Source of the DNA: Leucoraja ocellata
Lineage: Eukaryota
Assembly (NCBI GenBank): GCA_036785375.1
Contig: JAWMAR010000421.1
Span: 806,001 to 870,000, forward strand
Length of the DNA: 64,000 nt
Direction of reading: 5' to 3'
This document shows, in pieces, positions 5,264-39,914 of the stretch. The translations under genes were made by a program, and so were the position numbers. The notes beneath the pieces were generated by a model, which made no database searches, had not been told where the DNA came from, and worked only from the letters and a program-made list of their open reading frames with translations. How positions within the stretch are numbered: the first letter of the stretch is position 1; every line of letters starts with the position of its first letter.

Positions 5264-5421
5264 CTGTTACAGTGAGTGTGGCGGGCTTGGATTTGATGGA
5301 GCCCAGCGTGTTGCTGGCATGACACATGTATTGCCCAGCCTGCTGTGGCTGCAACTGGTGTAACACCAGCACGCTGCCAGATCCTGCTGTCCTTGCATCC
5401 AACAAAGAACCGTTGTGGTAC
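5264..5421 (-). CDS. CILP: CILP exon, 158 nt (Ig-like domain, second half)
   Basis: gatacag|G TAC CAC AAC GGT...ACA G|gtcagt; WYHNGSLLD...AGQYMCHASNTLGSIKSKPATLTV; phases 2 to 1 fit neighbours. Confidence 0.93.
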
Positions 5422-6445
5422 CTGTATCAACGGAAGAAAATAGTACAAAACCATGAGACTAGATAGCATACATAGGCCTTTTGGCTCAACTATGATCTTG
5501 ACAGAGGTTGGAGCAGACTCAATGACCCATGCAGCCTTGTCAGGACACAGCAAGGATGGAGGTGCCTATAAATGTCCATTGGGGGAGAACATTAGATTCG
5601 GTGGGCATTGGAATCAGTTGGGATGAGTTGCAATTCACCAGGGCTGAACCACAGTGACTGAACATTTTGTTGCTGCCCTCGGAGAGGTTTTGGACTGGTT
5701 TGACAACGGGATGAAGGAGGAAAGAATTTACTAAACATCTAGGAAGAGGAGGAACAAAACAACAGCCGAGGAAGCGCAAACTGGGGAAAAGTACTGTGTT
5801 GGGGAATAAAGATGAGGAACCCAGGGCGCATTTAGATGTATGGGTGTACGGCATGGTTGGTTGGGTGGGTGGGGTACAGCAAGTTTAGTTAAGGAAACAA
5901 TGATAGTTGTACTATTCCACTGTCTCCGATAGTCTCTAGTCTCTGACTACCAACCCCAACCTCTTGACAACTGAACAACCTCCAAATACCAGTCCTACTG
6001 CCCCAATCAGTGACTCCAGCCCAGTTACTGAAGCCACCCTTAGTACCTGCCCAGTGTAGATCCAACATTCCAACTAATTATTCCATCCCAATATGCAAAC
6101 AGCCATCCCATCCCAATACAGATCCCAACATTTAAACCAATGATCCCATCCCAATACCGACTGCAATATTTCAACCAGTTAGTCCCTGCCCCAACACCTC
6201 ATGGCTCCAGATCGCAGCCCCAATGTTAACCCCATCATCGGGCACCAACTCCAACCCTCAACAACAGATTCTATCCTCTCCGACCAGCAGTGCCGGCCCC
6301 GAACATTGAGCCCAATTGCTGGTGACCAATCCAACTTTGGACCATTGATTGAATCACCATTGGCGCTGACCCCACAGAGGTAACATGGGCTGCAAGGGAC
6401 AAAGGTAAAGATAAAGGAGCACAAACAAAACTGAGAGGTTCTTAC

Positions 6446-6554
6446 CAAAGGTACTTGTTAGCGGGAGGATTGCACACAACCTGGCAGCAGAAGGTGACGT
6501 CTTGCCCCTCGCGCCTGACCTTGCTCTGGGGTTGTTTCGTGATGAAAGGCTTCT
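6446..6554 (-). CDS. CILP: CILP exon, 109 nt (Ig-like domain, first half)
   Basis: tttctgcag|AG AAG CCT TTC...TAC CTT TG|gtaaga; EKPFITKQPQSKVRREGQDVTFCCQVVCNPPANKYLW. Confidence 0.93.
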
Positions 6555-7196
6555 CTGCAGAAAGGAGAAGATTTAACAAAAACAGTGAGTGCTTTTTTAA
6601 ATCATGCCACTAGTTGTATTGGTTGTTACAGCAGTTTTTTTGTTTATATGGGTTGGTTACTGGTTGCGGAGCTGTGATGAGTTGCATCATTGCAACTATC
6701 AGGTGTCTCAGGTGGTCTGTGTGTTTTGATGATTTATTTATCACAGAAGTGATAATGAAGTGTGTACAAAGGTGGTCTCATATTGAAGGGTGTGGAATAG
6801 GGAAATGCATAGTAACTAATAATAGTTATGTTAAAATGAAGCATGCGTGCTGTAAATGAGGTGCAATAGTGAGGACTGTACAATTGTGAAGGTTGTATGA
6901 TCACACGTGCCATATAATAGGGGCAACTGTATTAGTAAACACCCAAAATGTTGGCCATCCCTTTCTCCCAACAGGTGCTGCTCAATCCACCGAGTACCTC
7001 CAGCAGATTGTTAGCCAGTCCAGATTCCAGTCTCTTTGTGTCTCTGTATTTGTAATATTTGTGCGTTGGTGAAAGGCGTGTAACACAACAGGGAAATGTG
7101 AAACAGTGGACTGTGTAACAATGACAGGTGTGTTGTGTGATTACGTGCCTCCTGTTAGATGCTGTGTACATGCGGAGGTGTAGTGTATTTCCTTAC

Positions 7197-7511
7197 CGGA
7201 TCTCTTGAGCTTTATATCGATGGTGGAGACTCTGCTGGTGCTTTGGCGCAGTGTGACAACAGCAATTCCATAATAAGGCTTTCTGATCTCCAAGGCAGTT
7301 TTTCCATCAGGACAGAGGCCAGGTATCCTGAACTTGCCGTTATTGTCACAGACGGTCAAGGCTTTGTTGGAGCTTCCCCTCAGGTGAACAGTTGCCTCGG
7401 AGGCAGGAGCCCCATCCTGGAGTCGCACTGAACCATAGAGGGAATGGTCCTCACACATGCACTGGGTGCACGCTGCATTCACACGGCCCATGGCACACCT
7501 TAGCTCACAAC
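7197..7511 (-). CDS. CILP: CILP exon, 315 nt (carboxypeptidase-regulatory-like domain)
   Basis: gttgcag|GT TGT GAG CTA...TCC G|gtaagg; CELRCAMGRVNAACTQCMCEDH...GKFRIPGLCPDGKT. Confidence 0.93.
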
Positions 7512-9035
7512 CTGCAACACACCACAGTCAAGCTCAGTCAGAATTAATTCAAGGACCAAAGCATTCCCTTACGCAATCCAGATCTATTCTTTCTGCTCCC
7601 AGGCTGAGTGGAATTCTTTTTGTTCTCAACTTTCATGCAAGGGATCATCCTGCAGAATTCCCATACACCGCCAGGTACAATTCCCAATCCTTCCCCTTTC
7701 AGCATCCCCAAGAGAGTGTTCTTGTTGCATAATTCAGTTTCTCCCCATGTCTCAGCAACTTGCTGTGCACCCTCAACACCAGCCAATACGCCTCCTTTCT
7801 TCCCATTGTCCAGGAACCCAAACAATAATTACCATGAAGCAGTGATTTACTTCATTCGGTTAAATTTACTGCTCTGTTGACAGCAGGGTTTCCTCTGCAT
7901 GCAGATGACAGGAGATTGTCGATTGTTCACCCATTACTGCGATCCTCAGCTCCTACTCGCCCATCGCTTGTATTCTTCACCCTTCTACTCTCGCTGCTCC
8001 TCTAATTAAGTAACACTATATTCGCTGATTATAGTCTTTCAGACACAACATCAAGTTCAATAATCCTGTACAATCGTATTCCAGGATTTTTATTTTGGAT
8101 TTCCAGTATTCACGCCACACATTATCAGCCTTGTATTCAATCAATCAACCTTTATTGTCATCTTGCAAGCAACAAGTACAGTGCAAAATGAAAAGACGTT
8201 TCCCAGTGAATAGCGGATTCCTGCATTTCATGGATCTTCTCTATTTCTTCCCTTCCACTTTCTCTGCATCTTAAAACCTGCGTACCTCTGACATTTCCCT
8301 ACATCTAATGAAATCTGAAACTTGAACTTGGTTTCTTGTTCCACAGAATCTGTAAAATTTTCCAAGTGACCCAGTATTTTCTGTTCTTATTTTACAATCA
8401 TAGTGAATTAGGAACGTAATGTTCTGTCTGTATCGAGGGTGAGAGGGAAACATTGCATTGAAGACCGAAGAGATTTTCAACCTCTGGTTGAACTCTGGCT
8501 GAGGCCAAAGGGAAATGGCGACTGTATTGTTACAGCTCAGGAAAGTCCCTCCGGGGTAACCACAGGATGCAGGACTGGAAGTTGTGCAAGGAATGAGGAG
8601 AGGATCACTTTACTAGAGTGCCTCTGGGTAACTCCACAGCTCAAGGGCATCCACGGAGGAGATGGAGGAAGAGCAATTTGCAATCAGTTGACACTAAATC
8701 TTAACAAGAATATTTTTCACACTTAGTGACTTAGCATTTGATCAGAATAGTTGTTTTTTTAAGTTTAAAAAAAACTAAAACTAAACTAATAAGTTGTCCC
8801 TTTAAAAAATTAACCCCAACCTAGCTACTGATCAACAACCTTCCATCGGAAGTGTGAAAAGTCAGATGTCATTGAACCCAGGCACAAGTGACAATAAGGA
8901 ACCATTGAGGTATCTCTGCCAATAATTTTGAATTGTTCACAGATGATAAACGTATTTCCTTTGAAGATGATGTCATGGGATGGGATTTATTTTACAACCA
9001 CTTTACAATGAAGAGCAGATCAGATCAGATATTAC

Positions 9036-9104
9036 CGGCAGTCTGCTGTTGCCCACCGCTCTTTGCTGGAAGACTATGCAGTCTCAAGTCTGTTGAGGGA
9101 GTCA
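9036..9104 (-). CDS. CILP: Candidate additional in-frame 69-nt CILP exon
   Basis: Strong acceptor gttttgtttttgtgctctactcacag, donor G|gtaata, phase 1-1, stop-free: VTPSTDLRLHSLPAKSGGQQQTA. Confidence 0.5.
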
Positions 9105-9167
9105 CTGTGAGTAGAGCACAAAAACAAAACCACCATTACTCATAAATGGAATGATCAATAATGATGC

Positions 9168-9570
9168 AGTTTAGAAGAATGAGGGGGGGACCTCAATGAA
9201 ACGTACAGAATAGTGAAAGGCTTGGATAGAGTGGATATGTTTCCACTAATGGGAGAGTCTAGGACAAGAGGTTGTAGCCTCAGAATTAAAGGATGCTCTT
9301 TTTGAAAGGAGACAAGGGGAAATTTCTTCAGTCAGAGGGTGGTGAATCTGTGAAATTCTTGGCCTCCACAGAAGACCGTAGAGGTCATGTCAGTGGATAT
9401 TTTTAAGGCAGAGATAGATAGATTCTTGATTACTACAGGTGTCAGAGGTTTTGGGGAGAAGGCAGGAGAATGGGGTTCGGAGGGAGAGATAGATCAGCCA
9501 TGATTGAATGGTGGAGTGGACAATGGACTGGATGGCCTAATCCTACTCCTATCCCATATGACCTTATGAC
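9168..9570 (+). mobile_element. CR1 LINE 3' fragment
   Basis: tttagaagaatgaggggggacctc...gggagagtctaggacaagagg...cagagggtggtgaatctgtg...gatcagccatgattgaatgg. Confidence 0.75.
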
Positions 9571-9603
9571 CCCTAGGAGGGTCAGTGCTGAGTGAACACC
9601 GCA

Positions 9604-10966
9604 CCGTGGGAGGGGGAGTGTGGTACTGTGGGGGGGGCAGTGTGGTACTGTGGGGGGGGGGGGGCAGTGTAGTACTGTGGGGGAGGGGCAGTGTGGGACT
9701 GTGGGGGAGGGGCAGTGTGGGACTGTGGGGGGGGGGGGGCAGTGTGGGACTGTGGGGGGGGGGGGCAGTGTGGGACTGTGGGGGGGGGCAGTGTGGTACT
9801 GTGGGGGGGGCAGTGTGGTACTGTGGGGGGGGGGCAGTGTGGTACTGTGGGGGGGGGGGCAGTGTAGTACTGTGGGGGAGGGGCAGTGTGGGACTGTGGG
9901 GGAGGGGCAGTGTGGTACTGTGGGGGGGGAGTAGTGTGGTACTGTGGGGGGGGGCAGTGTGGGACTGTGGGGGAGGGGCAGTGTGGTACTGTGGGGGGGG
10001 GGTAGTGTGGTACTGTGGGGGGGGGCAGTGTGGTACTGTGGGGGGGGGCAGTGTGGTACTGTGGGGGGGGGCAGTGTGGTACTGTGGGGGGGGGGGCAGT
10101 GTGGTACTGTGGGGGGGGGCAGTGTGGTACTGTGGGGGGGGGTAGTGTGGTACTGTGGGGGGGGGGGCAGTGTGGTACTGTGGGGGGGGGGCAGTGTGGT
10201 ACTGTGGGGGGGGGCAGTGTGGTACTGTGGGGGGGGGGCAGTGTGGTACTGTGGGGGAGGGGAGTGTGGTACTGTGGGGGGGGCAGTGTGGTACTGTGGG
10301 GGAGGGGAGTGTGGTACTGTGGGGGGGGGCAGTGTGGTACTGTGGGGGAGGGGAGTGTGGTACTGTGGGGGGGGGGGCAGTGTGGTACTATGGGGGGGGG
10401 GGGCAGTGTGGTACTGTGGGGGAGGGGAGTGTGGTACTGTGGGGGGGGCAGTGTGGTACTGTGGGGGGGGGGGAGGGGCAGTGTGGGACTGTGGGGGGGG
10501 GGCAGTGTGGTACTGTGGGGGAGGGGAGTGTGGTACTGTGGGGGGGGGGGCAGTGTGGTACTGTGGGGGGGGGGCAGTGTGGTACTGTGGGGGGGGGCAG
10601 TGTGGTACTGTGGGGGGGGCAGTGTGGTACTATGGGGGGGGGGCAGTGTGGGACTGTGGGGGGGGGCAGTGTGGTACTGTGGGGGGGGGAGGGGCAGTGT
10701 GGTACTGTGGGGGGGGGGGCAGTGTGGTACAGTGGGTGGGGGAAGTGTAGTACTGTGGGGGGGCAGTGTGGTACTGTGGGGGGGGAGGGGCAGTGTGGTA
10801 CTGTGGGGGGGGGGCAGTGTGGTACTGTGGGGGGGGGCAGTGTGGTACTGTGGGGGGGGGCAGTGTGGTACTGTGGGGGGGGGCAGTGTGGTACTGTGGG
10901 GGGGGGCAGTGTAGTACTGTGGGGGGGGGGGCAGTGTGGTACTGTGAGGGGGGGGGGCAGTGCTGT
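9604..10966. repeat. G-rich minisatellite, unit ~ACTGT(G)7-13CAGTGTGGT (~21-27 bp)
   Basis: Directly visible tandem array; it explains all the Gly/Pro-rich ORFs in this interval. Confidence 0.97.
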
Positions 10967-11400
10967 ATTGCCTATGGTGTAGTTTGTTTGCTGACCCACT
11001 CTTTAGTTGATCCTGCATTGTGTAAATGCACTGTAGAAAATCCTGTAGTATCTTTAAAGCATCGAACATCAAGATTAGAGGATGTGGTGAGCAGATGACA
11101 CCTTGACTCATTGTTGCATGGAAGCCTGCCCACTGACCAGTATCGTTCCTTCCTTCTTAATGCAGTAAATATTGTTGCGTGTCACATAGTGGTGTAACTA
11201 CATGAGGGGGGAGTGATGCTTGGGAGAAGATTCATCTCTGATTCCACTCTTCATGAAGGAAGGGATCATTAGAATCGAGTGATCATGTGAAGTCAGGATT
11301 GCTGCACCAACCTTTGCTTTCACATGAGCTTTGAGGAAACTTGCTGATTATTGTCACTCCGGCAGTCGAGCCTGGAACATGAGCAGTGTGATGCACGTAC

Positions 11401-11592
11401 CTGTGCAAGGTTGGCCTTGGCACATCCGCCCCTCCTGCAGGGGGCCGGGGCAGTGCTGGCGCCAGTCTGGCAGCTGTGCTGTGGGGCAAGCGCGGCTCCG
11501 TGTCTGCACTCCAGTCTGCTCACAGCCTGCGCTGCAGGACGCCCACTCTGACCACGAGGACCACGAGCTCAAAGCCACCCTAGCAGCAGATC
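11401..11592 (-). CDS. CILP: CILP exon, 192 nt (thrombospondin type-1 repeat)
   Basis: ttcttcag|GA TCT...ACA G|gtacgt; WSSWSEWASCSAGCEQTGVQTRSRAC...CPGPLQEGRMCQGQPC. Confidence 0.93.
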
Positions 11593-12596
11593 CTGAAGAA
11601 AGAAACTCTGGTTTGTTTTGTGTTAAATTGTTCCAAAATATAACGTTATATTTCACTCTGTTTATCACTTATCTATTTTCTTCACCTTGAGGAATATTCT
11701 GATTTTGAATTCTGCGCCTCGACGCCTTTTACACTATTTCTGCGTGAGTTAAAGTTGATACAACTACAAATACCCAGTGACCATTGGCCGGCCAGTTATG
11801 CTGCAGCTCAGAAATCTGCCTCCGTGTTTGCTGCTCTGTGCTCTCGGGGAATTGTCCATTATCACCATTCTCATAGCTTTTTGATCGCAGTACAACCCAA
11901 ACAGCCTCATCTTTCTAATACATCATCTCTCCTGAGAGGAGTAATCATTTCTTTAACTCTCATTCTGACACACACCACCCTCACCCCTTCTTTGGCCATC
12001 TGAAAGCCCTGGTGTAAAGATGGTGAATTCTCATTCCAGCCTTGGTTCAACAATATTTGAAACAGGGTGGCTGGTGGAATCAGTGCTTTAAATTAGAGAC
12101 TATTGAATGCCACTGTGGTATCTGTTTCCACCACCACAACTGGCCACATGTTTCCTGCACCCATCTAAGTAACGAAATTGTGCCGGACATCTCCTTTAAA
12201 TCTTCCCCCTGAGCTTAAAGCTATGCCCGCCAATCTTGAAAGTTTAAACTAAAACAAATCAAATCTCACTTATTTCTCCCTCTCATTTTATAAACTTCTA
12301 CCAGTTCACCGCTAAACCTTCAATGCAGAGAAAACATTCAAAGTTTGTCCAACTCTCCTCGTATCCAATTCCCTCTAATCCAGGCAGCATTCTGGTGAAC
12401 CTGCGCCCTCTCCAAAGCCTCCACATTCCTCCTGTAATGGGGCTAACTGCACACAATATTCCAAATGCATTTATCCTCTAACTGTACGCGGTGGACAGCT
12501 TGATTGTAAACATGTAGAGTCTTTTCTTTCACTGATAGCATGCAAACAAAAGCTTTTCACTGAACCTCGTAACATGTGACAACAATAATAAACTGA

Positions 12597-13026
12597 ACTT
12601 GTACTCGGCTTGTACTCGCTAGAATTTAGAAGATCGAGGGTGGATCTTATAGAAACGTACAACATTCTTAAGGGGTTGGACAGGCTAAATTCAGGAAGAT
12701 TATTCCCGATGTTGGGGAAGTCCAGAACAAGGGGTCACAGTTTAAGGATAAGGGGGAAGTCTTTTTGGACCGAGATGAGAAAATCATTTTCTACACAGAG
12801 TGGTGAATTTGTGGAATTCTCTGCCATAGAAGGTAGTTGAAGCCAGTTCATTGGCTATATTTAAGAGGGAGTTAGCTGTGGCCCTTGTTGCTAAAAGGAT
12901 CAGGGGGTATGGAGAGAAGGCAGGTACAGGATACTGAGTTGGATGATCAGCCATGATCATATTGAATGGCGGTGCAGGTTCGAAGGGCCGAATGGCCTAC
13001 TCCTGCACCTATTTCCATGTTTCTAT
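12597..13026 (+). mobile_element. CR1 LINE 3' fragment (young family)
   Basis: Encodes YSLEFRRSRVDLIETYNILKGLDRL; ends in a ccatgtttctatg tail; close to the copy at 35376-36080. Confidence 0.85.
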
Positions 13027-13089
13027 GAAATAAATGCAGCTTCACCAAAGGTTTATAAAGCTGCATCATGACCTCCTGACTCTTACAGT

Positions 13090-13205
13090 GGGTGGGGGAG
13101 GGGTAGTGGGGGATGGGAGTCGGGGGATGGATCGGTGGGGGAGGGGCAGTGGGGGATGGGAGTCTGGGGATGGATCGGTGGGGGAGGGGCAGTGGGGATG
13201 GGTTG
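13090..13205. repeat. G-rich ~45-bp tandem repeat (~2.5 copies)
   Basis: ggggaggggcagtgggggatgggagtc..gggatggatcggtg repeated. Confidence 0.7.
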
Positions 13206-13461
13206 GTGGGAGAGAGTTGGAAGGACCCTGATGGAAATATTTGAGTGCTCTGGTGGACTGAGAAAAATAAAGCAGAACATAGCAGGAAGATAAGTAGACC
13301 AATGGACAGTGATAAAATTGGTTCCTCTCTTCTGAGTTAATGACAACTTAAAAAAAAATAAAAATTAAAAAGCACATGAACAGAATGTATTGCATCTATG
13401 TTAATGCTGGAAGCTCCTCAAATCTAGTAATGATACCCCAGCAGTGCTTGTGGATCAGTGT

Positions 13462-13590
13462 TTAAGAAGTAACTGCAGATGCTGGAAAATCGAAGGTAGA
13501 CAAAAGTGCTGGAGAAACTCAGTGGGTGCAGCAGCATCTATGGAGCGAAGGAAATAGGCAACGTTTCGGGCCCGAAACCCTTCTTCAGAG
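13462..13590 (-). mobile_element. Short Penelope-type element with hammerhead core CTGAAGA...GAAACGTT (13588-13560)
   Basis: Near-identical to the copies at 23142-23272 and 39915-40095; minus strand reads ctgaagaagggtttcgggcccgaaacgttgcc. Confidence 0.6.
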
Positions 13591-13938
13591 ACTTGTTCAA
13601 AGTGTCTACCAGCACTTTGTGTCCTATTTTCTCCTCTGCAGATGCTACCTGCATTTCAGATTTTCGGTATTTTTTCCCCCCCATCCGATCTTAGTGACAA
13701 CTCCTGCTTTATTTTACATCGGAATCAGCCTCACAGATTTTCCTTTCCACGTCTCACAGCTTTATCCTGAATGTCCTCCCAAAATTACTCAGAAAACGCG
13801 TTGTCACACTTGTCAGCGGTAAATTGCACCGGCCAAACTTTCCAGCTCATCTTCCTCCCTGTGGGATAGAGTACAAGAACAAGTGCAGACTGGGAGAATG
13901 GCGAGTCAGTTTCAGTCTCACCCAAAGGCGGCACTTAC

Positions 13939-14208
13939 CCGTGGGACATCGGAACCTCACCGCGTAGTTGGAGCAGTGTTTCCCCGAGGGCTGCTCTTCA
14001 TTGACGCACCAGAACCCATGCTGGTGATTGAGGTGCACTGCCTCTCCCGTCAGCGCGGCAGGGACACCATGCACGGTGCGAGCTTCAACTCCCAGTGGCG
14101 TTTGGCAGAGTTGGTCCGGGTAGTGTCGCTGGATGGCGTCAAGTTGCTCGTGGTCGCCACTCCCCCCAGGGTGGTCGATATTAAACCAGGGCGTCCACTG
14201 CCAATGCC
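13939..14208 (-). CDS. CILP: CILP exon, 270 nt (WxxW / Mucin2-type domain)
   Basis: gtttcag|GG CAT TGG CAG TGG ACG CCC TGG TTT AAT ATC GAC...ACG G|gtaagt; WTPWFNIDHPGGSGDHEQLDAI...GFWCVNEEQPSGKHCSNYAVRFRCP. Confidence 0.95.
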
Positions 14209-14374
14209 CTGAAACAAGGAGGTGTTATTTATTGCATCCCTTTCCTTGGCAAAGATTGATGGAAGGGAACTGTACAATTGTTCACGTACTCCATTCCTGG
14301 CTCCAATTTCTTCCACAGACCAGTCGGACACTGATCTCAACTGCAGTGAATGTGTCCTAGGAAACCAACTTCAG

Positions 14375-27239: not shown

Positions 27240-28220
27240 ACAGAAGACACCAAACAGTGAAGACAATTGTCTAAGGTTGCAACAGAATCTGTATCAACTG
27301 GGGAAGTTATAAAAGAAATTGCAGGTTGCAATTGCAGAGAAGTGCAGTTTGGCATTTTGGTAAATTAAACCAGGGCAGGATTTACACAGTAAATGGTAAC
27401 GCTATGGGGAGTGCTGTAGAACAGAGGGTGCAAGTGCATAGTTCTCTGAAAGTAGCAACATAGGTGGACAAGGTGGAGAAGAAGGTATAACATTCTTGTC
27501 TTCATCATTGAGTACAAGTGTTTGGCCATTTTGTAACAATTGCATAAGAAGTTGATGAGACGGTACCTGGAGCTTTGGTGCAGTTCTGGTTGCCCTTGTG
27601 TAAGAATTTTGTAATTAAGATAGAGGGGTGTAGAAAATATACAGATATTGCCAGGGATGAGCAGTTTGAGCTACAGAAGAGACTGGATGGGCTCTGACTG
27701 TTTTGACTCTGGAGCAAAAGATCTTGAGGGGTGACCTTATAAAACCATGTGGGACAGCAATAAGATGGGTGGTCACAGACCTTTCCTCGTGGGATTCTGA
27801 AATTAGGTGAGAGGGTAAAAAGAGAAGCCCGTTTTTTGCTCAGAGGATGGTGCTGGAGGAAGCTGTGGAGGTGGGTACAAATACAACACTTAAATGGCAT
27901 TTGGACAGTTTCATGGATACAAAAGATTTAGATGGATATGGGCCAAATGAAGGCAAGTGAGACTGGCTCAGGTTGAAGGTGTATGGAACAAGCTGCCAGA
28001 AGAGATAGCTGAGGCTGGGACTATCCCAACATTTAAGAGACAGTTAAACAGGTACATGGATAGGTACATGGATAGGGATATAGACCAAACGCAGGCAGGT
28101 GGGACTACTGTAGCCGGGACACATTGGCTGGTGTGAGCAAGTTGGGCTGACAGACCAGTTTCCATGCTGTATCACTCTATGACTGGGCTGAATGGCCCAT
28201 TTCCACGCTGTGTAACTGTA
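27240..28220 (+). mobile_element. CR1 LINE fragments (older; two 3' ends)
   Basis: tgcagttctggttgccc, ttgaggggtgaccttataaaa and CR1 3'-UTR-like ends. Confidence 0.65.
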
Positions 28221-29689
28221 TGAGTGAACTGGAAACAGTATAATTTAATTGTTAAACATTGAAACTGTAAATGTGTATGAGAAATATAAAAAACATGTGG
28301 GGGAAATGATTAAACTTTTCCAACAAACTGACGTGACTGGACTGTCGAACTAACCATATGTAATTAAACACAGGCTTTTGTCAAAAATGAGCAAAATAAG
28401 CACAATACAACTCAGAAAAGCCACAACAACTTTGTATAAAATCATAAACTACTGTGTTTTTTGGACGTAAAAACATCTGACTCATTGAATCCATTAGATA
28501 ATCACAATATGCGATTAGTTGTCCGGCCTCACCAAGGTTGTGGTGACATCTTTGTACATCATTGGAGCAAGGCTGCCCATTAATGTTCATGTGGGCAAAG
28601 CAGCCTATACTAGACATTAGCTTGTTCAGCTTATTTCTTGGATTCTCTGCAAAAAAATTGTTTTTCTTCTTACAGAGTGATCTGAATGCCAGTACAGAAT
28701 CCTTCTGGGAACTGTAGTACCAGCTTTGCCACCTCAGAATTACTCATATCAAAATCATACTTACCAAGTTGCAATTGATGCAGAAGGTGTGTGGGGCAAG
28801 TTCTTTTTAACACAGAGTGCCTGGAGCACTCTAGCAAGATTGGTGGTTGAGGCAGGTATGATTGTGGCATTGAATAGACTTTAGGCTAGGCATTATGGAT
28901 ATGGATTATGTGCAGATAGGCAAGGGATGACCTTGGTATCATATTTGGTACAGACTTTGTTGTCCGAAGGCCCTGTTCATGTTCTATTCTACATATATTG
29001 CTACTATTCGACGTGTATTCTTACTGTTCTATGTTCTTTCTTGTGGTGCTTTTACAATGGTTCAATATGAGTCAATCTCTCATATTCAACAATTATTTCT
29101 GCTAAAATACTTTTCCCGACAATTCTCCTGAACTAAATTTACAAACAAGACCTAACCAAAGAAGACGGAAGCTGTATTGGCTCCACTCTTGAAGCAGCTG
29201 TGAGTACGGGGAATGTTTAATTAGGATGTGGGAGGAAAATCCCAGGACGCAGACTCGTCCAACACCCACGCTGTACATTGCGTATAGCTCAGCATTTCCC
29301 AATGTCTGCATCATATGGTTATGGTCTGCAAATGATTAGCAGAGGAACAGTCCAGGTTTGGTCCAATGCCTGCATTCCGTGGCTGTGCAGATCAGATGGG
29401 TCTACAACAATGAGTCTCATTCATAATGACGGCTCCACTTTGGTTCAGAGGCCCCTTCAGCCAAATCACAACAACTGCAAACATTAATAAGGGCTACAGA
29501 AACAGGGCTGGAGAATACCAGATACCAGATATTTAAATGGAAATGGGAAGAGATGAGACAGGAGTGTGGAGACAAGATAGTGGAGATCGGAGGGGAGATG
29601 GGACAGGAGATGGGGGTTTGGAGACTGGACTGTGAGGACCATGGATCAGAATTTTCTGGCTCAGGGCTGTTTCCCATTGTACTATTCTC

Positions 29690-30290
29690 ATTGTGCCTCA
29701 CTAAATATGGATGGGGGTGCCAGGGAAGGGATTCTCTAACATTTCCACCACCTTCAACATGATTCCACCACCAGTCACATCTTCCCATTCCCATCCGTTT
29801 CTGCCTTCCACAGAGACAGCTCCCTCCGCAACTCCTGGGTTCACTCATCTCCAGACACCCAAGTCATCCCTGCCCAGATACTTTCCCCTGCAACTGCAGG
29901 AGATGTAAACCTGCCCCTATATCTCCTCCTTCACATCCATCCAGAGACCCCAGCATTCCTTCCAGGTGAGACAGAAGTTCACGTGAATCTCCTCTAACCA
30001 CATCTATTGCATTCTGTGTTCTGGGTGTGGCCCCCTATACATCAACAAGACCAAGCGTGAACTTGGCAACTCTTGCACTTGGTCTGCCAAAGCCTGCTGG
30101 ATCTCCTGGTTGCTAACTATTTTAACTCCTCTTCCCATCCCCATACTGACCTTTCTGTCCTGGGCCTCCTCTATCACCAGAGAAGGAGGCCACATGCAAA
30201 CTGGAGGAACAGCACCTCATAGTCCACTTGGATAGCTTACAGCCCAACCATATGAACATTGAATTCTCCGTTTCTATGTGTATAACTATA
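29690..30290 (+). mobile_element. Penelope-like element fragment (GIY-YIG endonuclease region)
   Basis: FPCNCRRCK, SFQVRQKFT..SSNHIYCILCSGCG.LYI..TKR and KLEEQHLI. Confidence 0.75.
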
Positions 30291-30719
30291 CCCCGGCCCA
30301 CCTGACTTGCACCTATTTATCTCCTCCCATTTACTTCCATCCTCTAGCTTTACAATTCACAACTGCTTAATCCTTATCACATCTTTTCCCTTTTCCTCAC
30401 TGGCCTTCAATCACCCCCCCCCCCCCCCACCCGTATCTACCTATTACTCCACAAGCTTTATCCTGCTCCAATCTCTCTTCCACCTCTCCAGGTGAACTAC
30501 CTGTTTGCATTTTGCCTGTGACATTGAAACCAAACTGCTTTAAGAATCAACACTATCTCTGAGAATTGTCAAAAATGTTCATTGTCATGATTCACTCACG
30601 GATAAAAAATGAATAAAGATAAACAGCATTAAACCATTTAACTTGAGTAATGTACTTGGAGTTACGCCATAACTTGGAGTAATATACACTTCACACTGCG
30701 AATAACCCACATTTTATTA

Positions 30720-30900
30720 CTGAAGCCAATTAACCTATAAACCTGTACGTATTTGGAGTGTGGGAGGAAACCGGAGCACCCGGAGAAAGCCCACGCGGTC
30801 ACGGCGAGAACGTACAAACTCCATGCTGACAGCACTCGTAGTCGGGATCGAACTCGGGTCTACGGCGTTGTAAGACTGCAATTCTACAGCTGTGCCGCCC
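30720..30900 (-). mobile_element. tRNA-derived V-SINE (HE1-like)
   Basis: Minus strand starts gggcggcacag...ccgagttcgatcccga (B box), then V-domain tggagtttgtacgttctc...gcgtggg...ctccggtttcctcccaca. Confidence 0.75.
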
Positions 30901-31007
30901 TAATTGAAGATTAAATGGGGGCAAGGCTGATGTCTAGGTGTCTGGCATTTCTTTCCCGTGTTTACGTTTTAAATGGACTGTACTTGGCTTTATCCACGGT
31001 CTGTAAT

Positions 31008-31185
31008 AGGAAGGAACTGCAGATGCTGAGTTACAGCTAAGTGTTGGAGTGACTCAGTGGGTCAGGTTGGTCTCTGGAGAACATGGATAGGTGCTGTTTC
31101 AGGTCTGAAGAAGGGTCCCGACCTGAAACTTCACCCATCCTTTTTTCTCCAGAGATGTTACCCGACCCGCTGTTACTCCAGTCTG
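31008..31185. mobile_element. Foldback short Penelope-type element with hammerhead-like motif at 31102-31135 (+)
   Basis: ggtctgaagaagggtcccgacctgaaacttcacc, flanked by inverted tctctggaga / tctccagaga arms. Confidence 0.5.
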
Positions 31186-31503
31186 TCTTTGCCACATTCT
31201 GCTTGGGTCAGCCGGGATTTCGGAGCCCGCTGTACTCCCCGCGCAACAACACCGCCCTCTCCCGGCCTTCCTGCTCCCTGCAGCCGAACCTGGGCTCCAT
31301 GAAGCCGAGGGGTGAACCTCCCGTCAGCTAAACTCTCCCGCGTCTGTGTCCGATGTTCCTTCTAACCACAAAATGAGTTATTCTTCTGTGCAACGTTTAA
31401 AGAAAGAATAGTGAATTCAATATGTAATGGAGTACTAATTCAAAACACACGTTTGTCCGGCAAAACTAATGCTGGGAATTAAAGGAGTCTTACCTGTTCA
31501 CTC

Positions 31504-31943
31504 TTCAGATTCAGATTCAGATTCAACTTTAATTGCCATTGTCAGTGTACAGTACAGAGACAAATAGCATCTCCCTGGAAGAGCGACATAGAATATGATT
31601 TCAATAAATAAATCTATTTACATGCATACAGTAATAGTCTTTTCCCTGTGGTAGGAGTGTGGGGAGGGGGGGTGTGGATTGGCAGTCACCGAGGTACAGT
31701 GTTGAGTAGTGTAACAGCCGCAGGGAAGAAGCTGTTCCTGGACCTGCTGGTCCGGCAACGGAGAGACCTGTAGCGCCTCCCGGATGGGAGGAAGGTAAAC
31801 AGTCCATGGTTGGGGTGAGAGCAGTCCTTGGCGATGCTGAGCGCCTGTCGCAGATAACGTTTGCTTTGGACAGACTCAATGGAGGGGAGCGAGGAACCGG
31901 TGATGCGTTGGGCAATTTTCATCACCCTCTGCAGTGCTTTCCC
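31504..31943 (-). mobile_element. Rex1/Babar-like LINE 3' end with (TCTGAA)n tail
   Basis: ORF KALQRVMKIAQRITGSSLPSIE...SHPNHGLFTFLPSGRRYRSLRCRTSRSRNSFFPAAVTLLN; (ttcaga)3 at ~31504. Confidence 0.85.
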
Positions 31944-32559
31944 TCTTGCTTCCACGCTGCTGATTTACAATAAAACTCCTTTAATTTTCGACACTCGTAA
32001 CACCTGGTACCGGACTAGCTATCGCGTGTGAACGTTACACGGTAGAATGATAATTACTATCAGCCCTAAGTTTCAAGAAAGCGCGGGGAACTAGAGGGAT
32101 TACCTGACCCTGATTCTCAAATACTAGAGGGCACAGGATTGAGATGCGAGATCGGGGAGGACGAGTGTTTTCCACACGTTGGAGTGGGCGTCTGGATTCT
32201 ACTGCCAGCAAATGTGATGCAAGCAGACGCAATATCAACTGTTAAGAGGCATTTAGACCAACACATGGATGAACGGGCAGGGAGTAGAGGCTCATGTCAG
32301 GCAGGTGGGGTACAATTAGATTGGCATCATAATGGTACAGACATTATGGGCTGAAGGGTCTCTCTCTGTGCTGTGCTATTCTTTATAACAATGCCCCGGT
32401 AAATGTAAAAAGAGTGCGGGACACGGAACCAGGTGAATTTCTAAAGCAGGAGCGGGTGCCCCAGCGAGTGGGGACGTGGGGACGAGGCCCCGGCGTGTGG
32501 TCAGGGTGGTCTTCCGCTGTGAGCCACAGGTGCTGCCTTCCAAATGGCGTTAGTTTGCA

Positions 32560-33620
32560 TAGCACGTGCATCCCGTTGCCTCTTCCCTTTCAACAGAGTC
32601 CGATGGAGAACTATCAAGATATCCAGATAGTGGATTACCAAAATTTGACAAATCCCTAAAGTCTATCATCCATCCAGATATCTGTAATAGAACATTAGAA
32701 GGCGGCGGCATCTGCGGCAGATCACGTCCCCGAAGTCTGCATTCCAGAGACCAGTGCAAGCTTTCAAGTTGGACTTTAAAAAAAACGAGTTCCACCGCTT
32801 AATTCACCAGTTGGTGTTGAGACTATCCTTATAATAAGCAAAACTTGCACTGGAAAGATAGTTGACTGAATGGGCACTTCCTCCCATTCACTGACATTAA
32901 CCCCTGCCATGTTATTACCAATGGTATCAAGACGTCTATTACGTGTCCTACCATTATGGTCCTTGACATACTTCAGTTCCCTAACCTTAGAAATATTACT
33001 CTCCATATCTAAGGGACATAAGGTCGATTTTATTAAACACAAACTTTCTAATAATAGTAATGATGAACAATTTAGGGATCTCAAGGCCCTGCAGGACAAA
33101 AGACCATCACCAACACTAATTGGAAGATGTAATATATCTTTGACAAACTTTCTGGAAACGTCATCCAAACTTGACGAAACCTCGTCCAAGATTAAAGGAT
33201 AAAATAGATATATCACGAACTCTTTAGCAAGCTTAGCTTTCTCATTAGGTTTAAGCCTGGTCTTGTCGAACCAGATGGCTAATTGCACTGGGCTCTCGCT
33301 AAATCTTCCGATCCCGGCAATCCCCGCACCCAGATATTCTTCAAAACATCCCGCTCTATGAACGCTAAATCTAATTTATGGATTTCCCAATGACTAATCC
33401 TATTATAGGTAAAGGATTTATGTTTGGTAGACATATACAATTCGGCAGACCGACTCACATTTATTTGGAGAGTCTTACTCCACCACCGTGTCTCCCAGGG
33501 GCTGCCTGGAATGTGGATAACAACAATCCTGTCTCTTTTATTTAAGAAAAGTTCTTTACCAGCAATTAATCATTGCGAGAACTGCAGGGTCTAGTTCTGG
33601 CCGGACACAGCCACCAGCCA
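32560..33620 (-). mobile_element. Degenerate R2-type (RLE) non-LTR retrotransposon fragment
   Basis: Frameshifted motifs appear in R2 order: LQINVSRS...KSFTYN...WEI, EEYLG, LKPNEKAKL...VKDILHLPISVGDGLL, EWEEVPIQ, FAYYKDSLNTNW, CRRCRR...LLQISGW (CCHC knuckle remnant). Confidence 0.7.
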
Positions 33621-35149
33621 GACATCAATCAACTAGGGAGAAGGATGGGGCCTCCGCCTTTCATTCGCCGGACCCAGCGCGGTACCAACCCACATTCCTG
33701 GACCCATGCTCTGGGCCGCTGTCTCTCGGTCTCTGTCCGAGGTGCTGAAACTCGGTTCCGGAGAGACAGACCTCCAATAAAATGCAGTGGAAAGAAGCGA
33801 GGCGTCTAAACAACCCACGGCGCGTTCTCCAGCTGTCTTCCGGGGGAAAGATCCCACCGGGACTGTAATGAGTGTAACTACCGGGACTACACTGCGTCGC
33901 ACCCGGCCTGCAATGCTCCACACCCCTCTGGCTCAGCACCGTCTTATCCCGAGTCTGTAAAATAAGTAATAATGTTGATCACAATAAGAACAAAGGAAAT
34001 CTGTGAACAGGAGGCCATGTACTTCCCGGGGATCCACAAGATCATGGCTGACCCCGGCACCATTTTCCCGCCCTGTCCCCAAATCTCTTGATTTATTTAA
34101 TGGCAGTATCGATAGAAGATCTATCAATTTCAACGTTGAGTGAATCCAAGGACCAAGGATCCACAGCCCTTCTGGTTGGGAATTTCAAAATATATCCAGT
34201 CTCCGATGGTTCTAAACTGTTTACCCCTTAGGTTAAGTTTATTATTATCGCACATAGCGGGGCACGGTGAAAAGCCTTAGCTTGCAAGCTATCTAAACAG
34301 ATCCAACATACCATATATAGTTGTAATCAGTTCAAAGTCGTACAAAAGAGAGAGCAACGGGCGTGATACAGAGTGCAGAATATAGTTTTCAGCATTGCAG
34401 TGCGCCAGTTCCTTACACAAAATCCAATGTCCTCAATGGGGTAGAGGTGAATCGAACGATATCTTGGCTTTATAGAAGGACCGTTCAGAAGCGGTCTGAT
34501 AACGAAGGGAAGAAGCTGTTTCTGTGCCTGGCGTTGCGCGCTTCTATACCTTCTGCAGGACGGGTGCAGGGAGAGGGAATGACCAGGGTGGGACGATTAT
34601 GAGCCCTTATTCTGATTCAAGACTCTTCAGCCAAGTGAAAGCCCCCCCCCCCCCCATCATCAACTCTGTCCAGGCCTCGAAGGATTGAGTTAAATTTACA
34701 TAGAATCACCTCTAATTCTCCCAAACTCTGGAAAGTGCAGTCTGAGTCCATGAAATCTCTCCCCATGCGCAAACCTAACATTCCTGGCCAACCCTGGTGA
34801 ATCTTCACTGCATTACACCGATTGCTAGTACATCCTTTTGTTTAGATGAGCAGCCTTCGTGCCAGGCTGATCCGACGTATAAGACACATGGGGTCCCCCT
34901 CCCCCCACAACCACGGTGACATGATGGACTGGATTCAAAATTCTTCTTTCATAGAAGACATGGGATAATGGTAGGGGTGGGGGGGGGGGGGGGGGGGGTA
35001 GTGGAGGGGGGGGGGGGGGGGTTATTCTGCCCCGAGGTCTATGATGTGGGGGTCAATGCTGGGATCTCTGTTGTTTGTGATATATAAATAAATAATTTGG
35101 AAGTAAGTATAAATGTGTTGGTAGGAAAGTTTTGCAGATAACGTGAAAA

Positions 35150-36475
35150 ATAGCAGCGTCATGGATAGTGAGTAACGTTGTCAAAGAATACAACAGGATA
35201 CACACCAGTTGGAAATATGGGTGGAGGATTGGCAGATGGAGTTTACATCGAAAAAGTGAAAAGTGTTACGTGAGTACACTTGTAAGTGTAAGTGAGTACA
35301 GTGAAGGGCACGACACTGAAGGACATTGAACAGGGGGGTCGTGAAAATGGCTGAACAGGTAGATAGGGCGGTCATGAAACATAGAAACATAGAAAATATG
35401 TGCAGGAGTAGGCCATTCGGCCCTTCGAGCCTGCACCGCCATTCGATATGATCATGGCTGATCATCCAACTCAGTATCCCATCCCTGCCTTCTCTCCATA
35501 CCACCTGATCCCTTTAGCCACAAGGGCCACATCTAACTCCCCCTTAAATATAGCCAATGAACTGGCCTCAACTGCCTTCTGTGGCAGAGAATTCCACAGA
35601 TTCACCACTTTCTGTGTAAAAAATGATTTTCTCATCTCGGTCCTAAAAGTGTGACCCCTAGTTCTGGACTTCCCCAACATCGGGAATAATCTTCCTGCAT
35701 CTAGCCTGTCCAACCCCTTAAGAATTTTGTAAGTTTCTATAAGACCCCCCCTCAATCCTGTAAATTCTAGCGTGTACAAGCCAAGTCCATCCAGTCTTTC
35801 TTCATATGAAAGTCCTGCCATCCCAGGAATCAGTCTGGTGAACCTTCTCTGTACTCCCTCTATGGCAAGAATGTCTTTCCTCAGATTGGGAGACCAAAAC
35901 TGTACACAAAACTCCAGGTGTGGTCTCACCAAGACCCTGTACAACTGCAGTAGAACCTCCCTGCTCGTATACTCAAATCCTTTTGCTATGAATGCTAACA
36001 TACCATTTGCTTTCTTCACTGCCTGCTGCACCTGCATTCCTACTTTCAATGACTGGTGTACCATGACACCCAGATCTCGTCACATTCTTGCCTTCAGCAG
36101 TGGGGACATTGTGAAACAGACGGAGGCTGTATAAAACGTTTGTAGGGCCACATGTGGAGTATTGCGGGCAGTTCTGGTTTCACATCACAGGAAGATTGTG
36201 GAGATTCTGGAGAGGGAACGGAAGAGGTTCGCCAGGACGATGCCTGCATTAGAGATTATTTGCGATCAGGAAAAGTTTGACAGACTCATTGTTTTCCCTA
36301 AGGTTTATATAAAGATGAGAGGCATAGTCAAAGTCACTAACTTTAGGGTGGAAGTGGCAAATACTAGAGGACGTAGCCTTAAGGCAAGAGCGGGGAAGAA
36401 TTAAGGAGTTTTGATGGCAAGTTTTTTCAACAGGTGCCTGGAATATGCTGCCGGGGAAGTGGTGGGAATACTGGC
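35150..36475 (+). mobile_element. Older CR1 LINE fragment interrupted by a younger antisense CR1
   Basis: tggcagatggagttt...aggtagatagggcggtcatgaa | insertion | cattcttgccttc...ataaaacgtttgtagggccacatgtggagtattg continues the same RT region. Confidence 0.65.
35376..36080 (-). mobile_element. Young CR1 LINE 3' fragment (RT C-terminus, 197-aa ORF)
   Basis: KKANGMLAFIAKGFEY...LVRPHLEFCVQFWSP...IEGVQRRFTRLIPG; (gaaacata)n tail at 35376. Confidence 0.92.
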
Positions 36476-37202
36476 GGTCCACGCTAGTGCATTAATATTC
36501 CCACCCCCTTGTTGATCAATTTCCCGCTTGGGACCCTACCGAAGACCCTCTAAAAATCAAAATACCCCACATCCACTGGATCCCCTTATCCGTTCCACAA
36601 GTCACTCCATCAGAACACCATTAGGCGTTCTTCCCCCTTCATAGATCCTCGCCCAACTCTCTCCAATATTGCCCATGTTTTTTTGTATTTAATGCGCGCG
36701 GCGCTGCGGGACCCTTACGGACTGAAAACAATATTTAATATTTAATCACCGAATATTTAATGACATCTGACTAGAGTTGCTTGAATATTCAGAGAGTAAA
36801 TTATTTCAGTTTCCATAGATACCGGTCCCCGAGTCATTCTTTCTTCTGCAGAAATGGGTCAAGATTGTGCAGGTCGGTCGGGAGGCTGATTAACATCGGC
36901 TTGGCGCCCTGGTTAGTCGGTGCTCGGGTCTGGCCCCCTCCAGCCGGCCCGCCGGAGGATCAGGTTCAGGTTCAGGTTCAGGGCGGGTGAGCGAGCTGCG
37001 CAGAGATTACAGATCCCGGCTTAAAACTGCCGCGTTCACCTTCTCCCAAATCTCTTTAGAACGAGAAGCCCAGTGTTGGGCGACGCTGGGAATGAGCCCG
37101 TGATCCAGGAGCGGAGACACAGGCTCGCCGCTCGGGCACCGCTGGTGGGCCTGGTGTAAATATCCAACATTGGACATTGGAGCGTTGAGGAACGGAGACG
37201 GG

Positions 37203-38543
37203 ATGTTTCCGGGGCGCAGGAGGAGACTGAGCTGGAGTCGGGTAGTCTTCTTGCTCGCCGCGCTGACCATTTGCTCTCTCTCGCGGTTCCCCACCGGGTC
37301 GTGGCCGGGATCGACGCTGTGGGGAGCGGGAGCCGGAGGCGCCTCCTTCCCTTACAGCAGAAGACTGCTGCAGGTCACAACATCTGGCAACGCGCACACC
37401 CAGCTCCCCGGGACCCGGAATCCACACCCTCGCCTCCCCGGGGCTAGAAGCCCCGACCCAGGACTCCCCACGACCAGCAGCCCCGACCCAGGACTCTCCA
37501 CGACCAGCAGCCCCGACCCAGGACTCCCCACGACCAGCAGCCCCGACCCAGGACTTCCCACGACCAGCAGCCCCGACCCAGGACTCCCCACGACCAGCAG
37601 CCCAGACCCCGGGCTTGCGCGGACCAGAAGCGCTCACTCTGAGACCCCGAGTCCCCACCCCGGCCCCCACGGGTCTAGCACCCCCAACCCCGGTCTCACC
37701 GGCACCAAGAGCCCCCGGCCAGGGTTCCTCGGCCCCAACAACCCGTTAACCAGAGACTCCAACAACTGGCCCCCTCCCAACCAGACCAGCGCCGCCGCCA
37801 TCAGCAGCGAGCCGGCCCCGTCGGAGAAGCCTAGACTAAGGGGATGTATCCTGGTGGGCAACGAGATCGTGCCGGTGCCGGCGCCCACAATGGCAGCTTC
37901 CACGCCGGGCAGCAGCGAGGCACCGGCCGGCAGCGTGGAGCCTCCCCCCGGCCACATCAGGAGCGCGTACCCGGTGGATGTATTCAGCCTGGAGGAGCGG
38001 CGCCAGGGCTGGGTGCTGCTCCATGTGACGGGCATGGTCTACATGTTCATCGCGCTGGCGCTGGTGTGTGATGAGTTCTTCGTGCCGTCTCTGGGCGCCA
38101 TCACTGAGAGGCTGAAGATCTCGGACGATGTGGCGGGCGCGACCTTCATGGCGGCCGGGGGCTCGGCGCCAGAACTCTTCACCGCCCTGATCGGGGTCTT
38201 CATCTCGCACAGCAACGTGGGCATCGGCACCATCGTGGGCTCAGCCGTCTTCAACATCCTCTTCGTCATCGGCATGTGCGCCATCTTCTCCCGGGAGATC
38301 CTTTACCTCAGCTGGTGGCCGCTCTTCCGCGACGTCTCCTTCTACATCGTCGACCTGCTGATGCTCATCGTCTTCTTCCTGGACAACATGATCTGTTGGT
38401 GGGAGAGCCTGTGCCTCCTGCTCGCCTACCTGGCTTACGTGGGCTTCATGAAGTACAACAGCGAGATCGAGCAGTGGTTCAAGCGCCAGATCACCAACAA
38501 CAGCAACGTGGTCAAAGTGATGTCCCTGCTCCACGGCGTCAAG
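37203..38543 (+). CDS. SLC24A1: SLC24A1 (NCKX1) first coding exon: N-terminus, extracellular loop, TM1-5 with alpha-1 repeat
   Basis: ATG at 37203 gives [18 protein letters not shown] (NCKX1-type start); [19 protein letters not shown]; CDEFFVP; [16 protein letters not shown]; [19 protein letters not shown]; donor AAG|gtgagt. Confidence 0.95.
37405..37740 (+). repeat. In-frame 30-bp coding minisatellite ([10 protein letters not shown])n in the NCKX1 extracellular loop
   Basis: ccccacgaccagcagccccgacccaggact ~5 near-perfect copies (37465-37615) with degenerate flanking units. Confidence 0.9.
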
Positions 38544-39914
38544 GTGAGTGCAAAAATCGCTGTCTTATCTAAAAGACAGATAGGGTCCCTGGATGTTAGG
38601 AAGGGAACATATGAAATTATGGGAGGTGCAACAGCAATTACAATGATAAGTAGCATACGACAGAGAGAGGTAGATGGGGATGGAAGAACACATCCGAGAG
38701 TCATAAGGAGAGGGCTGAAAGGAGAGGAGTGGGGAATATGTATGGTAATGGAATCTTGTTGGAACTGACAGAAGTTGCAAAGTAAGCCACACCAGTGCAT
38801 TAGAATAAGAGTGGAGACCAAAATAGGCCTGAAATAAGGACTGCTCCATGTCTCCCAGATAAAGACACAGGTAGCTCAGGCACTACAAGTTCACTTCACC
38901 TTTAATTTGGAGAAAGTGAGTGGAGTTGAAGGAGAAGTAGTTCATTGTGGGGACTGATTCAGAGGGCGCTCAGACCCTTCAGGTCTGAGGTGGAGATAAA
39001 GAGTGATTGGACATCCATGGCAAAGATGAGCCAGTTGGCAAAGTGGTGGAGGACATTAGAAGTCGCACATATGCCAAGTACAGAGCATCATTGGGGTGAC
39101 TCTGAGCTTCTAGTTCCCTGTCACCAGCTTTCTCCATCCTGATTGTTCAATCTCTGGCTTCATGCACTGCTGCAAGGCCCAAGCTTGAGGAGCAACACCT
39201 CATCTTCCCCATGGACATGTTGCAGCTTAGGACTCAACGATGCATTTAATCATCTCGAAAAACGTGCTTTTCTTCTGTATCAGTTCTGCTGTAAGGTTTC
39301 AGCTGTAACATCATTCTTCTATCTGTCGTTGTTCATTGTTCAAGTAGCTGAGCAGTTCCAGCATTCTTCCGTAAAAGGAAATTTAAACATTCAGAAAATG
39401 CTGGAAACACACAGCAGCTCAGGCAGAATCTGTGGAAGAGGTAAGCGAGTTTATGCTTCAGGTCAAAGAACTTGATCAGAGCTGGGAAAGTGAGGAATTG
39501 GTTTGTTGACTTGGTCTGCCTCTTTCCCAGTTGTAACAAAGAGCTTCAACCTGAAACACGACTTTGTTTCTTTTTCCACAGTTACTACTTGTCCTGCTGA
39601 GTATGCCCAGCACTTATTCCATACAGCTAATATGTTGCTTCACCAGTCACCAAATCTGCTCAAGGACCCTTTTCCGGCCACATGCATTCTTCATTTCCTG
39701 CAAAGATATGGGGTACTTTTGCTATGCAGGCATACATCTCATGCCCAGGAGTCAGTCATTCTTCCACTACCCTTTGTTCTTTCAAATTACTTTATGTCTA
39801 AATGTTGGAATTAAACATTATGTTGGAGAGAAGTTGAGCTGGACCACTGGCTGTTCCAACTGAAGGCTTTGGCAACCTCGCTTCCAACTCCACCTCCACG
39901 ACAATGTGAGTGTG

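Follow-up and report, generated by a model that had tools for sequence, protein, structure and literature searches.

A decayed R2 fragment in Leucoraja ocellata and its probable spread as cargo of a PIF/Harbinger-like transposon

Results

Genes and CpG-rich DNA around the relic

The window, by which we mean the whole 64,000-nucleotide stretch of Leucoraja ocellata DNA analyzed here, contains a CILP-type gene on its minus strand (1062-14370; Pfam CILP_C and CILP_8th) that points away from a K-dependent Na/Ca exchanger gene. A long G-rich tandem array (9400-11100) lies inside the CILP-type gene. The R2 relic described below may lie in a 5' intron of the CILP-type gene or between the CILP-type and exchanger genes (Table 1). 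It had originally been placed about 3.6 kb upstream of the start codon of SLC24A1. The distance stands, as the ATG at 37203 is 3.58 kb from 33620, but Pfam gives just Na_Ca_ex for this gene, which we presume to be SLC24A1.

The CpG-rich block that had been singled out on the 5' side of the relic is real (CpG observed/expected, 0.58 to 0.91), but the whole interval 30750-38500 is mostly CpG-rich. Two identities suggested for the block find no backing: it has no similarity to an R2 5' end, and an HDV-like ribozyme descriptor gave no match on either strand of 33451-34150, with four matches in the 5' end of the resident R2 of this genome as the control. Its stability is not unusual (folding energy, -124.6 versus a shuffle mean of -125.3), and an Rfam search over 28000-39000 gave four sub-threshold matches, none of them for the block. 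The simplest guess is that the block serves one of the divergently oriented genes as a promoter or noncoding exon.

TABLE 1 Features of the relic, the captured segment, and their surroundings (window coordinates)
Feature	Position	Strand	Evidence or remark
First large coding exon of K-dependent Na/Ca exchanger gene	37203..38600	+	Pfam Na_Ca_ex
CpG-rich block	33620..33960	.	Single copy, outside cargo
R2 RT C-terminal remnant (LQINV...WEIH frame)	33360..33470	-	Part above 33368 only at the window locus; single copy
Last RT motif and thumb (YLG, LKP, VKDILHLP, GDGLL)	33070..33357	-	Joined to RT C-terminal remnant across a frameshift; Pack copies have the same frameshift
Decayed R2 linker and CCHC remnant	32670..32900	-	Weak, collinear; homology ends here
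Putative donor segment, equal to the Pack cargo (R2 relic, spacer, presumed CR1-like scrap, unique DNA)	31180..33368	-	Junctions and copies
Old LINE fragment, common to window and copies	32184..32382	.	tblastx matches to a common LINE
High-copy LINE-tail insert of ~437 bp, with hexamer-repeat tail and 5-bp flanking repeat	31505..31941	-	Read depth; joint 31500-31943
Very common fold-back repeat, 3' capture junction	31009..31180	.	End 31023-31009 shares 15 nt with the carrier right arm

A truncated R2 fossil outside ribosomal DNA

The RT C-terminal, thumb, linker, and CCHC motifs quoted in the original prediction are all present in the minus-strand translation. The relic is thus real, but the limits proposed for it (32560..33620) are about 150 nt too wide on the 5' side and about 110 nt too wide on the 3' side, because detectable R2 homology spans ~33470-32670 (minus strand). 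Long open frames at ~41% identity were recovered when this genome was searched with the window frame, and one of them is an intact 1,355-amino-acid resident R2 (P0001) at the canonical 28S site in rDNA. Among solved structures, this protein is most similar to vertebrate R2 proteins (E about 1e-211). In a tblastn search against the whole window, P0001 gave two linked matches, 33470-33378 (35% identity) and 33351-33097 (39%), at an E value of 5e-12. The RT end and thumb are far above chance: the frameshift-aware score of the relic is 166, versus at most 46 in 36 codon shuffles, and the segment HMM scores are 27 bits for the thumb (best decoy, -3.5) and 4.8 for the LQINV segment (best decoy, -0.2). 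Contigs of two DNA runs bridge the RT C-terminal remnant and the thumb part. The linker and CCHC remnants follow the RT end and thumb collinearly, as expected of R2, but they are weak alone, with segment HMM scores not above decoys; in a separate test, four of six references scored above all 15 shuffles (56 versus 36, 51 versus 42, 37 versus 32, and 33 versus 28) and two did not.

An endonuclease motif had been reported missing, and we agree, as HMMs for the restriction-like endonuclease gave no signal in the window or in eight of the dispersed copies described below. The absence is best read as a deletion because R2 homology stops at ~32670. There is no R2 homology 5' of 33470 that would represent the N-terminal zinc fingers or Myb domain, and the relic is best described as 5'-truncated. 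R2 3' UTR or 3' end sequence was not detected above shuffles in the flanks of the relic, and neither 28S nor target site sequence was found in the whole 64-kb window; within 3 kb downstream of the relic, the best 28S trace scored 23 versus a null maximum of 44. The relic therefore does not occupy the canonical 28S site, and the description of it as ectopic is borne out by flanks that hold no decayed 28S sequence. As a query, its 199-codon frame returned five chance hits from PDB and nothing useful from Pfam, a 5.8-billion protein set, or a representative set, and a 9-row profile search gave a single match (E 0.6) to an RT protein 28% identical to P0001.

R2 has already been described in Chondrichthyes, as reported in part in PMC13188248. 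Three PDB chains, all of them R2 proteins (9nl2, E 1.8e-5), were matched at an E value of 1 or less by one better-preserved Pack copy. The relic itself scores 74 bits against the resident R2, 67 against a catshark protein, and 71 against a turtle protein, versus 18.5 bits against an open reading frame (ORF) of the same genome that we take to be HERO-like (L236) and 13.5 against L1. In a 50-row tree (170 columns; four relic rows that were short or duplicate are omitted), it falls in a clade supported at 99/94 that also holds the resident R2, the catshark and turtle proteins, and other decayed relics, and a 22-row tree has a 9-row R2 clade at 84/91 (unstarred); relic readings were taken by alignment to P0001, which biases them toward P0001 as a neighbor. 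Grouping of the relic with the HERO-like row was rejected (p-AU 0.004) in a test with ~150 usable residues, the named outgroups of which were one HERO-like ORF and one L1. The best matches are thus R2, as originally proposed, and not members of a dispersed non-R2 clade. The alignments and trees place the relic with the intact 28S-inserted resident R2 and shark R2s rather than with the HERO-like LINE. The relic is R2-derived by descent and is a fossil, not a working R2.

The relic is ~40% identical to the resident R2 protein and does not join the branch of the resident and catshark R2s. Support for this placement is weak (87/70 and 92/88), but such a position could mean a separate extinct family. 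In the 50-row tree, the window relic and loci L228, L230, and L237 form a weak, unstarred branch apart from the resident family. Old relics are 20 to 37% identical to the window relic.

The dispersed copies are cargo of a TIR transposon

A DNA search with 32500-34000 returned 37 non-self matches (81 to 97% identity), none extending above 33372. The same head replaces the window sequence beyond 33368 in all 22 non-window loci that were aligned at the junction. This head is ~333 bp long and starts with a terminal inverted repeat (TIR) that recurs at the far end. R2-coding bases are held by 29 of the 37 cargo loci examined (19 sites) and only the 3' part by the other 8 (5 sites); the 24 insertion sites were grouped by flank, by eye, and paired loci are haplotypes or duplicates. 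All 37 near-copies are TIR cargo or fragments of it, and genome searches found no free-standing close sister copy of the relic. The junction pattern occurs 24 times (at most 2 mismatches; control, 0) and the TIR pattern 838 times, counting both ends and related subfamilies. The R2 junction is present in just 5 of the 30 best head matches; others have different cargoes between the same TIR arms.

The carrier TIRs are ~45 bp long. At 20 sites with both flanks read, the right flank begins with TNA in every case and the left flank ends with TNA in 18; the 3-bp flanks match exactly at 11 sites and are not exact at nine, seven of which differ in the middle base alone. Of 10 loci checked, two (L243 and L248) have a DDE_Tnp_4 transposase with related terminal motifs on either side of it; the ends of L243 are 87% identical to those of the carrier over 45 bp, and those of L248 are more distant. 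From the TIRs, TNA flanks, and DDE_Tnp_4-associated ends, we infer that the carrier is PIF/Harbinger-like. A search of 30 short loci and 17 long ones yielded no autonomous partner with identical ends, and no cargo-free carrier was found. The amplified form is a multicopy Pack-TIR, non-autonomous and PIF/Harbinger-like. The flank mismatches in the middle base (e.g., TTA/TAA) could, by analogy with mPing, reflect overhangs carried from the previous site; for mPing, a cut with 3-nt overhangs at its duplications has been proposed (PMC4561436).

Two other candidates were set aside. A SINE head at the 33368 boundary is ruled out by the TIRs and TNA flanks, and a TIR located 4 kb from a transposase match (L256) belongs to a separate 1.4-kb element. 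Several other cargoes occur between the same TIR arms in L152, L145, L146, L156, and other carriers, and in one carrier subfamily the cargo resembles what we presume, from its motif, to be a decayed retroviral gag/protease piece. Cargo switches often lie in or beside the common fold-back repeat, a position that hints at homology-guided exchange.

The window as the likely donor

The window keeps the R2 frame for 100 nt beyond the junction shared by the copies. This part is single copy, and 33372-34250 did not turn up a second time in a genome search. Two DNA runs from one study yielded contigs that cross the 33368 junction without differences; read depth in these runs, 8 and 30 over 33664-34218, mostly rises several-fold within the cargo. 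Nothing is left of a TIR, head, or tail in the 64-kb window. At the 3' junction, the 15 shared nucleotides match the start of the carrier's right arm; the overlap at the 5' junction is one base. Together, these features indicate that 33368-31180 is likely the donor of the captured cargo.

The order of events can be read in part from what the window and copies share. The relic's frameshift and in-frame gaps are common to the copies, so the relic was already dead at capture. A LINE fragment, presumably CR1-like, lies inside the cargo, which is thus a mosaic of host DNA and not one R2 transcript; the younger LINE-tail insert (31505-31941) is absent at that position from all copies and was therefore likely inserted after capture. 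Window-copy and copy-copy distances are similar (0.056 versus 0.058 in one block with 11 copies; 0.072 versus 0.057 in a second block with 4 copies), which places capture and burst close in time. The copies retain YLGARID and QNT, both of which are gone from the window. Within the R2 frame, the ratio of silent to replacement changes is 1 to 6 for those specific to the window and 24 to 55 for the copies, as expected for neutral decay. We see no indication of function for the relic, which appears functionless; two small runs that may be RNA cover repeats alone and so bear on expression in neither direction.

Resident R2, its strays, and older relics

In a survey of resident R2 3' ends (25 loci examined, of 40 matches listed and 105 candidates), 19 of the 25 loci run on into 28S and 6 lie outside rDNA. 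Five of these six strays stop at the exact R2 3' end with 1 to 8 nt of target-like sequence; the sixth (L196) has 208 nt of 28S attached although it is outside rDNA. A 28S-specific resident R2 thus itself leaves sporadic strays. They resemble the off-target insertions made by avian R2 proteins in human cells, which account for ~1% and 0.1% of junctions and whose sites share little with the target beyond primer-pairing bases, according to the relevant sections of PMC11371274.

A protein search revealed further R2 relics at 87% down to 33% identity, and 20 places were inspected. One of 12 old relics tested (the window relic included), L228, has ~180 nt of 28S directly downstream of the R2 site at 87% identity, and a 28S flank is therefore still visible at that relic age. 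L228 falls in the window relic's weakly supported sub-branch. Both the strays and the relics are explained if 28S-specific families have let copies escape sporadically over a long period.

The strays with readable 3' junctions (L196, L207, L208, L212, L213, and L214, together with L220 at 2002-4413) are recent to middle-aged. L208, which is the same place as L057, is a 2.8-kb 5'-truncated R2 copy in GC-rich non-rDNA sequence, and L220 is 81% identical to the resident R2. Tandem R2 fragments ~82% like the resident and without 28S adjoin a recombinase-like ORF at L221 (G000:C230:718000-727999). At L224, L225, L226, L238, and L239, an old R2 relic (45 to 52% identity) is embedded in a 4.3-kb unit that is 97 to 98% identical between loci, and it is a second R2 fossil multiplied as a passenger. 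A 1,374-bp insertion in 28S (L197 to L199), 41 nt downstream of the R2 site, has short inverted ends, a 7-bp flanking repeat, and no ORF of 80 codons; it is partly common to dispersed repeats and is presumably hAT-like. Finally, a ~0.95-kb non-autonomous R2 derivative (5' end ~76% and 3' UTR 83 to 88% like the resident R2, with no ORF between) occupies the canonical 28S site in seven loci (L200 to L206) and is astray in three (L212 to L214). It resembles the SIDEs of Drosophila R2, as described in part in PMC3414825, and a vertebrate case of such a derivative may merit attention.

Discussion

We conclude that the window contains a dead, truncated elasmobranch R2 that probably escaped a single time, long ago, from a 28S-targeting family and was probably captured later, together with flanking DNA, by a non-autonomous PIF/Harbinger-like transposon, which spread it to at least 19 other sites. 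Off-target reverse transcription would have put a 5'-truncated R2 between the CILP-type and exchanger genes; off-target target-primed reverse transcription (TPRT) is offered for its arrival by inference, because the relic's own 3' junction is gone. The neutral decay that followed, with loss of the endonuclease and 3' end and the landing of a LINE scrap adjacent to the relic, can be read at the locus itself. Both capture junctions are likewise visible, and they may reflect break repair inside a TIR element, with a template switch to the window, copying of 33368-31180, and a return switch via the 15-nt match between the common repeat (31023-31009) and the element's right arm. The loaded element then transposed in a burst that gave rise to deletion subfamilies, as the distinct flanks and TNA duplications show, and the window copy continued to decay independently, as its private changes show.

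The original prediction was of an ectopic or relaxed-specificity R2 lineage, and its relaxed-specificity part is not supported: the near-copies examined are all in a TIR transposon, no free-standing close sister was found, and the 28S-specific resident R2 leaves strays of its own. In a more modest form, an elasmobranch R2 sub-lineage could have lost 28S specificity and spread at low copy, leaving the window relic and some of the old relics as its remains. We consider this quite unlikely. Further decayed R2-like matches do exist (33 to 56% identity), 11 of the 12 old relics tested are without a downstream 28S piece, and the window relic groups weakly with L228, L230, and L237, away from the resident family; non-specific R2 families are also known in flatworms, as set out in part of PMC5035012. 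However, the old relics are few and match the window relic at only 20 to 37% identity, the unstarred branch could result from long-branch attraction, and its member L228 carries a 28S tail. Moreover, a 28S-specific resident family produces the same kind of strays, and the near-identical dispersed copies are transposon cargo. Were such a lineage real, early sharks and rays would have hosted an R2 sub-lineage without 28S targeting, the first in vertebrates, of which the window relic would be one of a few survivors and Harbinger preserved a better snapshot in dozens of copies, an outcome that seems to us just as doubtful. It is also unlikely that the relic, though derived from a 28S-specific family, arrived without off-target R2 priming, either as an rDNA fragment or through a read-through transcript of R2 and 28S that another LINE copied, with the 28S flank later deleted. 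L196 and L228 show that R2 with a short 28S tail can sit outside rDNA, and everything 3' of the CCHC remnant has been lost, so that such a tail could have gone too, but five of six recent strays end at the R2 3' end without 28S, and neither the 3 kb downstream (23 versus a null maximum of 44) nor the whole window retains a trace of it.

Other objections concern the role of the window and the identity of the relic. It is very unlikely that the window is not the donor, having itself decayed from a larger Pack element, or that the donor was a now lost duplicate of the region. The copies differ from the window about as much as from one another, and they keep residues that it lacks; equal distances are nevertheless predicted if the burst came immediately after the capture, TIR, head, and tail remnants are absent from the 64 kb, and the R2 frame continues past the shared junction in the window alone. 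We find it highly improbable that the 199-codon frame (33375-32779) or the relic DNA was exapted as a coding exon or control element of the neighboring genes. The frame is open over its 199 codons, two window-specific deletions are 12 nt, and the relic lies in CpG-rich DNA on the upstream side of two divergent genes, but the 1 silent and 6 replacement changes do not suggest constraint, the window changes no more slowly than the copies, and the frame, which has no ATG near its start, ceases to follow R2 after GDGLL. Hardly credible, finally, is an origin from a dispersed non-R2 LINE clade with a restriction-like endonuclease (HERO, NeSL, Utopia, or R4). That reading gains what room it has from the ~150 usable residues and from a single named outgroup of these clades, an ORF that we presume to be HERO-like; it is largely refuted by the PDB matches of the Pack copy, the bit scores, and the trees, all of which favor R2. 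The 28S-flanked catshark R2-1_SCa, as given in Table S2 of PMC13188248, also has the same YLGARID and QNT as the Pack copies.

An R2 fossil spread by a Pack-TIR joins two known kinds of element; it is the pairing and the copy number that are unusual. In a limited literature search of titles and abstracts, we found no report of an R2 fragment spread by a TIR element. The case sets a trap for R2 surveys: a query with the relic returns dozens of dispersed R2-like copies that mimic a non-specific family and yet were spread by a DNA transposon. Multicopy capture by TIR elements is rare in animals, and here the donor, both junctions, the order of insertions, and at least 19 sites are readable. With these features, and with several cargoes between the same arms, the mechanism of capture becomes testable from sequence alone. 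In addition, the R2 strays in this genome span a series of ages and have 3' junctions that can be read, and they form a natural record of off-target insertion by a class of proteins used for gene insertion.

The relic shares the wording and order of its RT end and thumb with elasmobranch 28S R2s (P0001/L051, catshark P0003, and R2-1_SCa, the last as given in Table S2 of PMC13188248) and with the solved vertebrate R2 proteins (9nl2, 9nl3, and 9dou). It differs from them in being ~40% identical, broken, ~800 nt long, and without endonuclease, UTRs, or a 28S location. R2-derived sequence outside rDNA is also found in flatworms (R2NS-1_SMed and R2NS-1_CSi); the passages of PMC5035012 on non-specific R2 families place them in flatworms alone and describe copies >98% identical to the consensus with junctions of their own, whereas the dispersed copies here share a transposon junction. 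R2NS families are recognized by independent similar copies with R2-made junctions at unrelated sites, which is not what the dispersed copies show.

The carrier agrees with the PIF/Harbinger definition outlined in PMC9179366 and PMC4561436, which comprises a 3-bp TNA target duplication and TIRs of 25 to 50 bp. Like the non-autonomous elements of that group, mPing included, it has ~45-bp TIRs, 3-bp flanks with a free middle base, and ends of the kind found around DDE_Tnp_4; it differs from the reference elements in that the flank pairs at 7 of 20 sites differ in the middle base alone. Among animals, its closest parallels are multicopy Pack-TIRs such as Pack-hAT-N8_XT of Xenopus tropicalis, which likewise hold host DNA between non-autonomous TIR arms. 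The survey that described them (PMC8277862) covers 100 animals and counts 370 Pack-TIRs, of which four (1.4%) are multicopy, and its tabulated data include 21 PIF-Harbinger rows and list 0 Pack-TIRs for elephant shark. In its examples, as here, the parental locus is without TIRs and repeated transposition is evident from distinct flanks. In contrast to the frog examples in that survey, which have 3 to 5 copies, the skate element has a PIF/Harbinger-like carrier at no fewer than 19 sites, and in contrast to the frog Pack-hAT, it bears a mosaic cargo of 2.2 kb that includes a retrotransposon fossil, between arms that also bear other cargoes.
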